The position numbers were made by a program, and so were the translations under genes. 24,937 bases of DNA. It comes from an archaeon. GTDB lineage: Archaea > Nanobdellota > Nanobdellia > Woesearchaeales > UBA9642. The notes under the pieces are model-generated. The model did not search any database, was not told where the DNA came from, and saw only the letters and a list, made by a program, of their open reading frames with translations. Below are positions 19,206 through 23,635 of this stretch, piece after piece (within the stretch, counting starts at the first letter, position 1; the number at the start of each line of letters is the position of its first letter). The stretch is from assembly GCA_043806035.1 (NCBI GenBank), contig JAZDHK010000034.1, positions 1 to 24,937 on the forward strand, written 5' to 3'.

Positions 19206-20060
19206 ATGTTAACCTTTGAAAAAGAAGTTCGTGTCGTAAAAGATGTTCAAGGACAGGAATTTTACGCAAACAACATTCCAGATGCTCTAGAAGCAGCGCT
19301 GAAAGCTGCGGCAGGCGGCGGCTATGTGGCAAGCTTCCCGCAACTCGTACATGCACGCCTTATCACAGAGAACGGCAGCGATCCTATTTGGCAGAAGTGG
19401 TGGACGGCAAACGGCAGCGAGAATGTAGGCAAAACCAAGCAGGGAAAACCTGTCGTTCTGACTATTAATGGACAGCTGCCCTCGCCTGACAGAATAAGGC
19501 AAGCGCTTCGCGAAGGGCTCATTGGCGGACGCATGCAACATACAGACGAAGAGTTCCAGTATATGCTCACTGACCCTAATGTTCCTGAGCTGTCATACAA
19601 AGAAGTAAAAGAGGGTAAGAACCTTCCTATACTCTACAGGGTCGTCACAGATTTCAATGAAGAAGCAAAACTGCCCTCAGGCTACGAACCTATAGACAGA
19701 TGGAGAGGCAACCAACGCTTCATTATCAGAGCTGGCGGAGAAGAGAAGGCTAACCAGATCCTAGATAGAAGTGCACAGGTGTACAATACAAAGAAGTATG
19801 GAAATTGGACATTTTTCAAAGACGCTAACCCAGATAAGCCTCAGGGGCTTGTGCCTGTCCTTGGCGACGGCGGCGACTACGGCTTCGATGGCAGCTTCCT
19901 CGGCAGCAACGTGCGGTTTGGTGGGGTAGCGCCGGAGGCGCTCGTGGCGCGCGAAAAATTCGCACCTACTCTTGAGCAGATATCCGATGCTATGACTGAT
20001 CTTATAGCACCAAAGAATATGGATCTTGTGCAGGAGCGCTTGCGCCAGTTATACAAATAA
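19206..20060 (+). CDS. DGR variable (target) protein, putative C-type-lectin-like fold
   Basis: Contains the VR encoding GLVPVLGDGGDYGFDGSFLGSNVRFGGV; no signal peptide. The fold is inferred from characterised DGR targets. Confidence 0.9.
   Translation: MLTFEKEVRVVKDVQGQEFYANNIPDALEAALKAAAGGGYVASFPQLVHARLITENGSDPIWQKWWTANGSENVGKTKQGKPVVLTINGQLPSPDRIRQALREGLIGGRMQHTDEEFQYMLTDPNVPELSYKEVKEGKNLPILYRVVTDFNEEAKLPSGYEPIDRWRGNQRFIIRAGGEEKANQILDRSAQVYNTKKYGNWTFFKDANPDKPQGLVPVLGDGGDYGFDGSFLGSNVRFGGVAPEALVAREKFAPTLEQISDAMTDLIAPKNMDLVQERLRQLYK
19844..19929 (+). repeat. DGR variable region (VR)
   Basis: 86 nt aligning to TR with 15 substitutions at TR adenines (12 A>G, 3 A>T), one C>T and one 3-nt gap. 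Confidence 0.95.
19928..19942 (+). promoter_or_regulatory. DGR target-recognition hairpin 3' of VR
   Basis: AGCGCC-GGA-GGCGCT; absent downstream of TR. Confidence 0.8.
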
Positions 20061-20095: not shown

Positions 20096-20099
20096 TCGT

Positions 20100-20282
20100 C
20101 CCAGCTACAGCATCTAAACGGGTGCTGAGAGAGTAGCTTGGAACTACACGCTCGTTCACTACGGCAAAACTCTCATTTTGCCATAAAATACAGCCTCAAC
20201 AGCGATGAAGGGGCAGTGAACGCCGAGAATTAACGTTCTCGACCCTGAACAGTGATTCAGGAAAGTGAACGCGCTACTGTGC
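20100..20282 (+). ncRNA. Putative structured 5' leader of the DGR template RNA
   Basis: At least five stems plus a long-range 8-bp pairing in about 180 nt with no credible ORF. Confidence 0.55.
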
Positions 20283-20371
20283 GGGGCTTGTGCCTGTCCT
20301 TGGCAACAACGACAACAACGGCTTCAATGGCAACAACAACCTCAACAACAACGCGCGGTTTGGTGGAATAG
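20283..20371 (+). repeat. DGR template region (TR)
   Basis: 89 nt with 11 AAC/AAT codons in the VR frame and 26 adenines; ends 40 nt upstream of the RT start. Confidence 0.95.
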
Positions 20372-20411
20372 TCAGGCTATTAAACGCTGGGACACTTTTC
20401 TTTTCTCGAAC

Positions 20412-22082
20412 ATGGCTACCGACGAGGATATGTTTACTCGGCTATGTTCTTACACTAATCTTGAACTCGCTTTTCAAAAAGCGCGAAGAGGAAAGACTCT
20501 CAAATCATATGTTATAGACTATGAAGCCAATCTGAAAGAGAACTTGCTCAAATTAAGAAACGAGTTATTGTTGCTCACGTATCGCCCATTACCTCTTAAG
20601 ACATTCATTCTCCACGATCCAAAAACGAGAAAGATTAGCAAATCCGACTTCCGCGACAGAGTCATCCATCATGCAGTGTGTAACATTATCGAGCCTCTCT
20701 TTGATAAGACGTTTATTTATGACAGCCACGCTAACCGGCTGGGCAAAGGAACATTCAAAGCAATAATACGCTACGAGCAATTTGCGCGGCAAGTATCAAA
20801 AAACAACACGAGAACTGTCTTTGTGCTTAAGGTAGACGTCAAACATTATTTCGACACTGTTGACCACAAGATGCTCATGCAGATACTTGCAAGGAGAATA
20901 AGTGATGAACGGGTCTTGTGGCTTATTGGTGTTATTCTTGCCAATCATCACACGACAGAGGAAGGGAAGGGCATGCCGCTTGGTAATCTGACGAGTCAAT
21001 TCTTCGCTAATGTTTATCTCAACGAGCTTGATCAATTCGTGAAGCATGAACTCAGGGCAAAATACTACATTCGGTATGTTGATGATTTTGTCATCATGCA
21101 CACATCACAAAAAGTGCTTGATGAGTATAAGCGAAGAATTGATGACTTTCTGAACGATCATCTTGCTGTTGCATTGCATCCTGACAAGTCAAAAGTCATT
21201 CCACTTGTGCAGGGCGTGGTCTTCTTAGGCTTTAAAATCCATCCTTACCATAAGCGAGTGAGAGATAAGAATGTGCGCAAGTTCGAGAGAAAACTTGCAG
21301 ATCATGCAGCATCATGTGCTCAAGGGATGATTACAAGAGAGCAGGCGGTCGAGTGTTTTGAAGGATGGCTTGCCTACATCGCTCACGCCAACACGTACAA
21401 ATATCGTCGAGCAATCACAAGACGATTTAACGCGCTCTTTCCCATTGAGCCCATGCAACCGCTTGAGCATGTGAAGAAACATGAGCGTAATATACGACGC
21501 GCAGAAATTGCAGAGAACCAATTCACGACACAGAAAACATTACTGCTCTACAGAAAGGGATTGACCATCAAGCAGATTGCGGAACAGCGAGGCATCAAAG
21601 AATCTACGGTATGGCAACATTTCGCCAGTCTTATTGAGCATCATCAACTGTCCGTCTGGCAGTTGCTCGCTAAAGAGAAAATCATCAAGATACTGCATCA
21701 CATCCAATCTGAGCAGGACAGGCTTAAAGACATCAAAGAACGTCTCAACGACGCAACAATAACCTATGATGAACTGGCTTGCGTTCTTGCATTCGTGAAA
21801 AGAAAGAATAAGAAGAGCAACATCTGCTTTCTTGCAAACTGGTATCAGCACAATTACTGTTATCGAAAATGCCCACTATCGCAGCGTCGAGTATGCAAAT
21901 TCAAATTTGATGAGTTTATCAGGAAAAATCCGACGCTGGAGATGAGAAGAAAGGAATTTCTCGGCCTGTTCAATGTGTACATGACTATTTGCATATTATC
22001 TGATGCAAAGAAACGAGAATATGTCTCGTGGATTGAGTTCAGGCAGAGGCTCACTTCAGTTTCAAGAAATCGCTCGGCGTAA
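20412..22082 (+). CDS. DGR reverse transcriptase with C-terminal HTH and Cys-rich extension (556 aa)
   Basis: FRDRVIHHA, KVDVKHYFDTVDH, GMPLGNLTSQFFAN (DGR-type GxxxSQ), YIRYVDDF, FLGF; then TLLLYRKGLTIKQIAEQRGIKESTVWQH. Confidence 0.93.
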   Translation: MATDEDMFTRLCSYTNLELAFQKARRGKTLKSYVIDYEANLKENLLKLRNELLLLTYRPLPLKTFILHDPKTRKISKSDFRDRVIHHAVCNIIEPLFDKTFIYDSHANRLGKGTFKAIIRYEQFARQVSKNNTRTVFVLKVDVKHYFDTVDHKMLMQILARRISDERVLWLIGVILANHHTTEEGKGMPLGNLTSQFFANVYLNELDQFVKHELRAKYYIRYVDDFVIMHTSQKVLDEYKRRIDDFLNDHLAVALHPDKSKVIPLVQGVVFLGFKIHPYHKRVRDKNVRKFERKLADHAASCAQGMITREQAVECFEGWLAYIAHANTYKYRRAITRRFNALFPIEPMQPLEHVKKHERNIRRAEIAENQFTTQKTLLLYRKGLTIKQIAEQRGIKESTVWQHFASLIEHHQLSVWQLLAKEKIIKILHHIQSEQDRLKDIKERLNDATITYDELACVLAFVKRKNKKSNICFLANWYQHNYCYRKCPLSQRRVCKFKFDEFIRKNPTLEMRRKEFLGLFNVYMTICILSDAKKREYVSWIEFRQRLTSVSRNRSA

Positions 22083-22461
22083 GAACACGAATGCCCTCAA
22101 ACACCTTAAGTTTGAGCAGATGCTGGTCTTGTGAGATGATGCAATCAGCATTCGCTGCTTTGGCACATTCAAGAAAAATGTTGTCAGATGGGTCGTCGGT
22201 GATAACATTCACTTTCTGAGCGGGTTCGACGAGCGTCGCCAGTTCCACGATTTTCTGGAAAGAGTTACGAACCTCAAGATGCTTGTTTTTCACCTTATCT
22301 TTGATCTCTTTGTAATCGAGCACTCTTGAGAATTCGTCAAGAATGTCTTTTGAGACGAAGAGTTCGTGCTTTTTCTCCTCGATCAGTTTCACTATTCTAA
22401 ACGAGTCGCCATACCAGAACGTAGCCGAAAGCAAAACATTGGTGTCCAGAACCAGTTTCAT
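22051..22461 (-). CDS. PIN-domain (VapC-like) toxin
   Basis: MKLVLDTNVLLSA, ILDEF, DDPSDNIFLECA, IISQDQHLL; ATGA-coupled to the antitoxin. Confidence 0.92.
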   Translation of the reverse strand: MKLVLDTNVLLSATFWYGDSFRIVKLIEEKKHELFVSKDILDEFSRVLDYKEIKDKVKNKHLEVRNSFQKIVELATLVEPAQKVNVITDDPSDNIFLECAKAANADCIISQDQHLLKLKVFEGIRVLTPSDFLKLK

Positions 22462-22715
22462 CGTGATTTCCTGAACTTGTGCACCATGTCGGGAATGTCT
22501 GATTCTTTCATGCCTGTCTTTTTCATCTCTTCTTTGAGCGGCTTTGTTATCTGCTCAAATGTTTGAGACGTTACGCGTTTCATGATGAGCGCGTCGTTGC
22601 TAAGCATGAAGAGCACCTTGCTGCCTTCCTCAAGACCCATGCTGTCTCTGATGTTGTTCGGAATGCATACCTGTCCTCTGGAGCTGACCGTTCCCATTTC
22701 AATCATATCGTCCAT
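22458..22715 (-). CDS. AbrB/MazE/SpoVT-family antitoxin
   Basis: VSSRGQVCIPNNIRDSMGLEEGSKVLF; GAGGTGA SD. Confidence 0.92.
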   Translation of the reverse strand: MDDMIEMGTVSSRGQVCIPNNIRDSMGLEEGSKVLFMLSNDALIMKRVTSQTFEQITKPLKEEMKKTGMKESDIPDMVHKFRKSR

Positions 22716-23045: not shown

Positions 23046-23080
23046 AATCATGGAAGCTAAAAGGGTATGAGGTGAAAAAC

Positions 23081-23635
23081 ATGGTATGGACTTACAAACG
23101 TGAACCCTTAGAAGATAACGAAGCCGACTTGCTCAGAAGAAACTGCAAAAGCTTTGAGGAAGAGCTTGTGATTAACGTGCTCCTTGATACGGGCATGAGA
23201 GTGAGCGAGCTTGCCCACCTCGAAGAGCAGAACGTGGCCTGGCAACGCAGTTGCATCAACCTTACAGGCAAAGGCGGTAGACGACGCGTCATTCCCATGA
23301 GCAATCTGGTGGGCTTCTATCTGACGCACACGTTTAGCAAGCAATCGAGGGTGCCGTTAGCTATTCGTACTATTGAGAAGTACGTCAAGGTTGTGGCAGA
23401 GCGCGCGCGGCTCAAGAAGAAGGTTAGCCCGCACATCTTACGACACACCTTCGCCGTCATGTACCTGCACCGTGGCGGCAATCTTCGAGCGTTGCAATCA
23501 ATTCTGGGGCACAGCAGCATAACCACAACAGACATTTACTTGAACTATTCTGGCAAACGGGTGATTGAGGATTTTCAGAAAGTGTGGCAGCAAAAGGAGG
23601 TCGGCAACGCGAGCTTGAAGCAGTTTTTCCCATGA
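23081..23635 (+). CDS. Tyrosine recombinase (Xer/integrase family), catalytic domain only
   Basis: TGMRVSEL, GKGG, HILRHTFA, LGHSS and TTDIY give an intact R-K-H-R-H-Y set; a GAGGTGA SD favours ATG 23081 (alternative GTG 23072). Confidence 0.92.
   Translation: MVWTYKREPLEDNEADLLRRNCKSFEEELVINVLLDTGMRVSELAHLEEQNVAWQRSCINLTGKGGRRRVIPMSNLVGFYLTHTFSKQSRVPLAIRTIEKYVKVVAERARLKKKVSPHILRHTFAVMYLHRGGNLRALQSILGHSSITTTDIYLNYSGKRVIEDFQKVWQQKEVGNASLKQFFP

Follow-up and report, generated by a model that had tools for sequence, protein, structure and literature searches.

Diversity-generating retroelements (DGRs) are, to our knowledge, the only natural system of targeted protein hypermutation. One such element lies in a stretch of archaeal DNA of 24,937 nucleotides (Woesearchaeales, UBA9642; GenBank assembly GCA_043806035.1, contig JAZDHK010000034.1, positions 1 to 24,937, forward strand; hereafter the window). 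Its reverse transcriptase (RT) raises the question of what a protein of this kind does with ~210 residues past its thumb, and whether they stand in for the accessory protein Avd, for which the cassette contains no gene. These residues form two further domains, one belonging to the helix-turn-helix (HTH) family HTH_40 and one with four conserved cysteines (Cys4). The tail they make up probably is a later addition and not the replacement of a helper; related elements consisting of the RT core only are mostly devoid of Avd, too.

Two domains follow the thumb of the reverse transcriptase

The open reading frame (ORF) for the RT (20412-22082, + strand; ATG at 20412, stop codon at 22080-22082) encodes 556 residues; a GTG-started ORF, 20265-22082, is mere read-through of the template repeat (TR). 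The parts of the protein are as follows.

20412..21446, + strand: RT core with thumb, residues 1-345 (RVT_1, Foldseek)
21447..21809, + strand: linker helix and HTH_40, residues 346-466 (PF14493)
21810..22079, + strand: Cys4 domain, residues 467-556 (conserved cysteines, no known family)
21858-21860, + strand: codon for the putative ligand C483
21870-21872, + strand: codon for the putative ligand C487
21894-21896, + strand: codon for the putative ligand C495
21990-21992, + strand: codon for the putative ligand C527

RVT_1 (PF00078) was matched by residues 70-275 (E 1.8e-22) in the numbering of the Pfam scan, which used a translation from 20415 and is therefore one lower than that of the protein. 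The top Foldseek match of the RT was 8ub7_A, the Bordetella DGR RT (E 4.3e-18, template modelling score by target 0.85, 27% identity), and the next fold matches in the PDB were group II intron RTs, all aligning to the RT core only. The motifs LGNLTSQ and YVDDF are conserved in the alignment of homologues, the former fitting what we take to be the signature of DGR RTs, [I/L]GxxxSQ. The Bordetella chain has 328 residues and, likewise, aligns to the core only; the first-pass annotation, made from the letters of the window without database searches, was thus right to regard this RT as longer than is typical.

The match to HTH_40 (PF14493) comprises residues 372-459 (21525-21788) and profile positions 1-89 of 89, that is, the full length of the family, with E 4.6e-19 and 68.9 bits against a gathering cut-off of 27, which agrees with the HTH_40-like domain previously placed at 21525-21794. 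That it resembles the C-terminal HTH of RecQ-type proteins was borne out as well: among ten non-RT carriers of HTH_40 sampled, four were RecQ-type and two PIF1-type helicases, and two more were proteins of ~220 residues combining RQC and HTH_40. In the RecQ-type helicases, HTH_40 is accompanied by RQC, HRDC and RecQ_Zn_bind. No account of the function of HTH_40 was found in the literature searched.

The Cys4 domain is a previously undescribed one, ~85 residues long and mostly helical by prediction, with four conserved putative metal-ligand positions (C-x3-C-x7-9-C/H-x31-C). In 40 full-length homologues, the tail follows the pattern NWY..N.C.RKC-x7-9-C-x31-IC.L; C483, C487, C495 and C527 are invariant in 40 of 40, and C457 and C472 are not conserved. 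The CYRKC-x7-C motif with further cysteines noticed earlier therefore corresponds to C483-Y-R-K-C487-x7-C495, completed by C527. No match to the domain was obtained in the PDB, BFVD, Pfam, NCBIfam, PADLOC or the ESM Atlas; when the latter was searched for the domain outside RVT_1 clusters, there was no usable feature match and all structure rows had a template modelling score < 0.5, and a C-terminal profile compared with the sequences of solved structures yielded weak HTH matches only, none to the Cys domain. Mean pairwise identity decreases from the RT core (0.63) via HTH_40 (0.54) to the Cys domain (0.48). Both parts of the tail are basic, with a net charge of +5.5 and an isoelectric point (pI) of 9.4 for HTH_40 and of +12.8 and 10.0 for the Cys4 domain.

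Modelled separately, residues 346-556 gave an almost wholly helical structure (predicted local distance difference test, pLDDT, 90.2; predicted template modelling score, pTM, 0.77). Its best fold match in the PDB was 3iuo_A, the C-terminal domain of RecQ from P. gingivalis (probability 0.98, E 0.45); further matches, to the HTH part only, were HTHs of the LuxR/NarL type and a viral DEAD/SNF2-like helicase. Since the HTH core is like the DNA-binding HTHs of the LuxR/GerE/NarL type (NarL, 1je8, E 0.031), with several DNA-binding domains of response regulators among the fold matches and weak matches to Sigma70_r4_2 and HTH_23, the tail might be a transcription regulator by which the RT represses or activates its own cassette. 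This is very unlikely, as the best family is HTH_40, the sampled carriers of which are mostly helicases rather than regulators; a comparison of k-mers in the leaders (the DNA between target gene and TR) revealed no palindromic operator specific to the extended forms, and self-regulation leaves the conserved Cys domain unexplained.

The fusion is genuine and found in part of a wider group

The best 120 database homologues all contained PF00078 together with PF14493 (54-62% identity, mostly ~97% coverage, 472-618 residues). Where named, they belong to Woesearchaeota or Nanoarchaeota, the nearest named relatives being metagenome-assembled genomes. With the frame intact and both domains present in 120 of 120, a frameshift or an assembly artefact, either of which would have undone the fusion proposed by the first-pass annotation, is ruled out.

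With one genome taken per species, 592 of 598 pattern-matched stretches encoded a relative of the RT; the best 80 loci, from DPANN archaea, were studied and sorted into forms with hidden Markov models built from the alignment of homologues. HTH_40 lies within the RT frame in 25 of the 80 loci, 19 of which have the Cys domain, too. This long form is intact in 12 loci, interrupted in 5 and cut by contig ends in 2. In the other six, the protein (451-494 residues) ends just past the HTH, with stop codons within the contigs; these natural variants lost or never had the Cys domain. The remaining 55 loci encode an RT core only (RT-only; 292-434 residues, except L062). The core of the exception (L062:561-2141) groups with the RT-only forms, and its extension of 167 residues matches neither the HTH_40 nor the Cys profile and may be a different one. 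Another frame, of 125 residues (L100:4767-5141), joins the first ~90 residues of an RT core to the last ~45 of a Cys domain and appears to be what an internal deletion has left of a fused RT.

Across the phylum, the C-terminal profile was matched in 44 of 301 genomes sampled. At 50% clustering, 27 proteins matched at E<=1e-30, mostly fragments, with one full-length representative among 150 listed; these few representatives indicate that the fused RTs are a shallow, well-conserved group. In an unrooted tree of RT cores (74 rows; incomplete cores of L023, L024, L025, L027, L042, L047 and L071 dropped), RT-only and extended forms are separated by a single change (support by the SH-like approximate likelihood ratio test, SH-aLRT, 73), the Cys-less forms require three changes, and a clade of 23 RT-only elements (starred) adjoins the extended forms. 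The tree is compatible with the extended RTs being a single group among mostly Avd-less RT-only elements, and with one gain of the tail in a lineage already devoid of Avd.

The tail is probably not a substitute for Avd

The window carries the order target-TR-RT, with the variable repeat (VR) inside the target. The features ahead of the RT are listed here.

19206..20060, + strand: DGR target gene, 284 residues, AvpA homologue (phmmer against the PDB)
19844..19932, + strand: VR, paired with the TR
19928..19942, + strand: candidate hairpin AGCGCC-GGA-GGCGCT, with a stem of 6 bp and a loop of 3 nt, at the 3' end of the VR (DNA fold, centroid structure)
20098..20105, + strand: GTCCCAGC in the leader, 5' arm of a putative helix bracketing the TR (exact reverse complement of 20386-20393)
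20283..20374, + strand: TR, adenine-rich, paired with the VR
20386..20393, + strand: GCTGGGAC, 3' arm of the same helix, starting 12 nt past the end of the TR and ending 18 nt ahead of the RT start codon

No ORF lies between the stop of the target gene (20060) and the TR (20283), which is preceded by a leader of ~220 nt and is followed, 37 nt downstream, by the RT start. Avd acts in trans, as a pentamer, and it was proposed that the fused nucleic-acid-binding module has taken its place and so defines a single-protein class of DGRs; the HTH_40-Cys module would then, in cis, bind RT and DGR RNA and license priming. We consider this unlikely. It agrees with the lack of an Avd homologue in the cassette and in the genome (1.50 Mb in 42 contigs, 93.7% complete), where PF05635 (the family of Avd-like four-helix bundles) and PF22296 (bAvd) gave 0 matches at E<=1, and with the pI of the tail domains, 9.4-10.0, which is like that of Avd proteins (9.5 +/- 0.7 in the excerpted text of Wu et al, 2018; PMC5758913). 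HRDC, another C-terminal domain of helicases and one that joins HTH_40 there, is, in the literature excerpts used here, known as a DGR accessory gene. In 50 related genomes, PF22296 exceeded its cut-off in 0 of 11 with the long form and in 0 of 6 with HTH_40 only, that is, in none of 17 other fusion-bearing genomes. However, the same held for 30 of the 33 genomes of closely related RT-only elements, so that the expected correlation between fusion and absence of avd was not observed; the three positive genomes are all labelled Aenigmatarchaeota. As genomes with RT-only and with extended forms alike mostly lack Avd, its absence is a trait of the wider group in the sample, and the label of a single-protein class fits this wider group of DPANN RTs and not the fusion. 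What stands of the proposal is a basic HTH_40-Cys module in a cassette without avd; what does not stand is the replacement.

Two of the RT-only loci contain a gene of the bAvd family between TR and RT (L054:7661-8014 and L078:5182-5550). In the set examined, no other archaeal locus has a clear Avd gene adjoining its RT, and the two serve as a positive control. PF05635 was found in 2 of 11 long-form, 0 of 6 HTH_40-only and 10 of 33 RT-only genomes (8 of the 10 over cut-off), and no RT was present within 1.5 kb of its six best copies; one more PF05635 gene is located ~2.1 kb from the RT of L048. A widely shared small accessory ORF was not found when 1477 neighbour ORFs were clustered by BLAST. 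A Pfam tally of 134 small ORFs near RT-only genes contained bAvd in 2, and among 62 small ORFs near extended RTs it was absent from the 25 families shown of 45, the genome-level search with PF22296 covering the rest.

The RT-only relatives keep the same compact target-TR-RT layout, the distance from VR start to TR start being ~300-530 nt in both forms, which leaves no room for a gene. They also look active, judged by TR/VR pairs with adenine-specific differences, which were found in 40 of 55 RT-only loci, compared with 13 of 19 long-form and 5 of 6 HTH_40-only loci (many of the misses have no upstream flank). Nor does the module reach the RT-only elements from elsewhere in the genome: 25 of the 33 genomes had no match to the C-terminal profile at all, and only two hold a free-standing Cys-domain ORF. 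A free-standing module beside the RT was also looked for and rejected, as an ORF for HTH_40 or the Cys domain separate from the RT frame was found in 0 of 80 loci. In addition, no likeness of the tail to the four-helix bundle of Avd, in sequence or fold, was found by Pfam, PDB fold and profile searches, and six natural RTs possess HTH_40 without the Cys domain.

The tail domains as free-standing proteins

A scan of the phylum and an exhaustive profile search found both tail domains as free-standing proteins, and no RT core was present near them within the DNA fetched.

Cys-only proteins, ~87-135 residues: L095, L096, L097/L098, L099, L109, P0179, P0188, P0217, P0273
HTH_40+Cys proteins, ~205-225 residues, six distinct ones: L101, P0146 (seemingly identical to L112), P0156 (seemingly identical to L111), L110, L113, L114

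A search restricted to proteins of 105-335 residues returned seven matches, and the four that were aligned proved to be C-terminal pieces of fused RTs. The free-standing proteins align cleanly with the RT tails. Cys occupies ligand positions one, two and four throughout. At the third, 5 of 9 Cys-only proteins have His, whereas each of the 8 HTH_40+Cys rows (from six distinct proteins) and of the 6 RT tails shown has Cys. This exchange of Cys for His at the third position points to a structural zinc site, which is predicted for the Cys4 domain. Most of the Cys-only proteins (L095, L096, L099, L109, P0188, P0217, P0273) end in an extra C-x2-C-[KRV]-x-[FL]-G-[IMV], which is absent from the RT tails.

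The gene for L101 is directly upstream of a superfamily 2 (SF2) helicase gene, and that for L110 is part of a same-strand row with an SNF2 (DpdE/ZorD-like) helicase and a SEC-C protein, followed by an integrase. These are the two HTH_40+Cys loci with >3 kb of context. A helicase beside every free-standing HTH_40+Cys gene was considered and dismissed, since tblastn with the helicase of L101 found no counterpart in L110-L114, the SNF2-type helicase of L110 being a different one. The neighbours of Cys-only genes differ: those of L096 and L095 follow AbiEii and HEPN genes, respectively, which are neighbours of the toxin-antitoxin or defence type, L097 precedes a Schlafen/AlbA_2 gene, and L109 precedes a YgjP-like peptidase gene. 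On a metagenome contig of 2.7 kb, a PF05635 gene (L113:1319-1762) adjoins the free-standing HTH_40+Cys gene on the opposite strand, a single case that may be due to chance.

The helicase genes bear on a possible role of the module in the DNA-side steps of retrohoming, where it would recognise the end of the VR or its hairpin, or recruit a host helicase or the replisome, and thereby deliver cDNA to the target. By its position, the tail would then be an analogue of the DNA-binding region found after the thumb of group II intron RTs (the DNA-binding and endonuclease region, D/En). HTH_40 is otherwise associated with helicases, and AvpA-type targets accompany 20 of 26 extended RTs (14 of 20 long-form loci, window included, and 6 of 6 HTH_40-only loci), compared with 8 of 55 RT-only loci. 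Moreover, the hairpin motif CCGGAGGC was present in 5 of 8 leaders of extended forms and in 0 of 34 RT-only leaders. However, the extended RTs group together, and shared ancestry can explain the association with AvpA-type targets as well as that with the hairpin motif. In related loci, 3-nt-loop hairpins come after the VR whether the RT is of the long or the short form. In addition, Pfam contained no HNH or other nuclease family matching the tail at E<=0.1, and helicase contexts number two only, the other four free-standing loci being too short or different. We therefore regard a role on the DNA side as improbable, to about the same degree as the substitution for Avd. Still a little less probable is its specific version, in which the tail is a device borrowed from a helicase-partner protein and, by binding the hairpin or the end of the VR or by recruiting a host helicase, hands the mutagenised cDNA over to the target.

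A basic add-on as the favoured function

The reading we favour, with confidence and doubt in even balance, is that the tail is a nucleic-acid-binding add-on that gives the RT extra grip and is no stand-in for Avd. Since both domains are strongly basic and the third ligand alternates between Cys and His, the tail would be a zinc-stabilised nucleic-acid-binding module tethered to the RT, and may thereby give it additional hold on the DGR RNA or cDNA, or on the DNA of the VR. It could be an enhancement or specialisation linked to targets of the AvpA type. The sister elements, whose cassettes are equally compact and seem to function in its absence, indicate that it would not be indispensable.

Several observations weigh against this. 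The zinc site and the binding of nucleic acid are both read from sequence and are putative, and none of the fold matches of the tail reached E<=0.001 in the PDB or BFVD. The AlphaFold model of the full-length protein (pLDDT 81.8, pTM 0.51) does not fix the arrangement of the domains. The excerpted text of Wu et al (2018; PMC5758913) states that Avd proteins are poorly conserved, and PF05635, PF22296 and the BLAST clustering could therefore miss a helper that has diverged very far. The apparent activity of the RT-only elements derives from adenine-specific TR/VR differences, and a single gain of the tail is not established, nor can gain be told from loss, because the tree has no root and the branch between the forms has a support of 73.

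The cassette and a probable RNA helix around the template repeat

The element of the window is a DGR by its DGR-type RT, its adenine-specific TR/VR pair and its AvpA-type target. No Pfam family matched the target protein; in phmmer against the PDB, it was identified as homologous over its full length to AvpA, a nanoarchaeal variable protein (5ioo_A; E 1.9e-19, residues 14-284 on 6-255 of the chain), and it belongs to the largest cluster of neighbour ORFs (28 loci). The VR is situated in the 3' part of the gene, its end 43 codons ahead of the stop. TR and VR differ by 16 mismatches, 15 of which are at TR adenines, the remaining one being C>T, and by one gap of 3 nt. Within 19890-19913, the VR is one AAC codon short of the TR, and the non-adenine change turns GCG of the TR into GTG of the VR. 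The hairpin at the VR end is not above shuffled sequences (z-score -1.03), and the case for it is made by where it lies and what shape it has; a figure legend of Paul et al (2015; PMC4372165), as far as the excerpt extends, mentions hairpins with trinucleotide loops in DGRs of nanoarchaea.

The two arms, GTCCCAGC and GCTGGGAC, recur as a pair in 7 of 7 long-form loci of the target-TR-RT layout. In RT-only loci, different but mutually complementary pairs occupy the equivalent places, e.g., GTCTCGAC/GTCGAGAC and GTCTTAG/CTAAGAC. Leader and downstream sequence from the same locus form longer helices than those from different loci (mean longest helix 7.35 vs 5.90 bp), and 0 of 2000 permutations reached the observed mean. 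This suggests that both the RT-only and the extended forms have a covarying RNA helix around the TR. GTCCCAG, a candidate leader motif specific for the extended forms, was consequently discarded: it is one arm of this helix, and RT-only forms have the same helix in other sequences.

On the other side of the RT, a convergent gene for a PIN-domain protein (PIN_3, E 7e-21) with a MazE/AbrB-type partner overlaps the last 32 nt of the RT gene (22051-22715) and is followed by a short tyrosine-recombinase gene (Phage_integrase, E 1.6e-27; 23072-23635). The same genome contains a second DGR-type RT (L002; contig C1:1526-2581, minus strand), which is 49% identical over residues 3-340. It is interrupted by one in-frame TAG and, having neither HTH_40 nor the Cys tail, ends soon after the thumb; upstream of it are a candidate target of 350 residues and a stretch that is rich in A and resembles a TR.

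Significance

Two poorly understood steps of DGRs are touched by these findings, the priming of cDNA without Avd and the installation of the cDNA in the VR. The close relatives constitute a natural series (RT only, RT+HTH_40, RT+HTH_40+Cys4) in the same compact cassette and with the same kind of helix bracketing the TR, so that the contribution of each added domain is directly testable. Two uncharacterised pieces, HTH_40 and the new small Cys/His domain, gain a context, and it is new that both tail domains also exist as free-standing proteins and that the third ligand may be Cys or His. Should the tail indeed be a device for the DNA side, it would be the first case of a DGR in which the RT itself, by way of a recognisable domain, performs the cDNA-integration step. 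We rate the scientific value as moderate, because the function is deduced and the idea of an Avd replacement fails.

Comparison with known systems

The closest solved structure to the RT core is that of the DGR of Bordetella phage BPP-1 (mtd-avd-TR-brt; bRT-Avd-RNA, PDB 8ub7/8ubd), and adenine-specific transfer from TR to VR and a VR in the 3' part of the target are common to both, as would be a hairpin after the VR, for which the window has a candidate. BPP-1 has Avd, whereas the DGR of the window is without an avd gene; the RT of BPP-1 has 328 residues, that of the window 556, with HTH_40 and Cys4 added; and the TR, which is behind avd in BPP-1, is behind the leader in the window, shortly ahead of the RT start. 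Where group II intron RTs have the D/En region, the HNH motif was not found in the tail of the window RT, which is predicted to be mostly helical.

DGRs of Nanoarchaeota and other DPANN archaea with AvpA-type targets are, in the excerpted text of Paul et al (2015; PMC4372165) and Handa et al (2016; PMC5006420), like that of the window in host group, AvpA-homologous target, trinucleotide-loop hairpin (a candidate in the window) and compact cassette. The same excerpts place small ORFs, like Avd in size and pI, between the RT and the target of these DGRs, whereas the window has no such ORF and an extended RT instead; the excerpts, which deal with DGRs of nanoarchaea and with AvpA, are silent on a C-terminal extension of the RT. 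The loci of Nanoarchaeota SCGC AAA011-G17 in our set (L048, L051) are RT-only.

According to the excerpted text of Wu et al (2018; PMC5758913), the accessory-less "Architecture A" (TR-RT) accounts for 29% of elements and an avd-less lineage exists; ~20% of DGR RTs have C-terminal extensions, of up to ~150 residues, in which no motif is reported but a weak MutS_I in three RTs. The DGR of the window is accessory-less like these, but its extension of ~210 residues contains a clear HTH_40 and Cys4. Literature linking DGR RTs with HTH_40 was not found, the supplementary tables of Wu et al (2018), which may list members, being outside the search; in the text of Roux (2021), the terms accessory, Avd and HRDC do not occur.

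The HRDC accessory genes of some DGRs resemble the module in that a nucleic-acid-binding domain from the C-terminus of helicases has been recruited by DGRs. They differ from it in fold family, in being separate genes and in their pI (6.9 +/- 1.3 in the excerpted text of Wu et al, 2018; PMC5758913), whereas the module of the window is fused and basic. With the HTH_40 of RecQ and PIF1 helicases, finally, the window shares the full-length profile match above the gathering score and, in 3iuo_A, the best fold match; what sets it apart is that HTH_40 here stands between a reverse transcriptase and Cys4.

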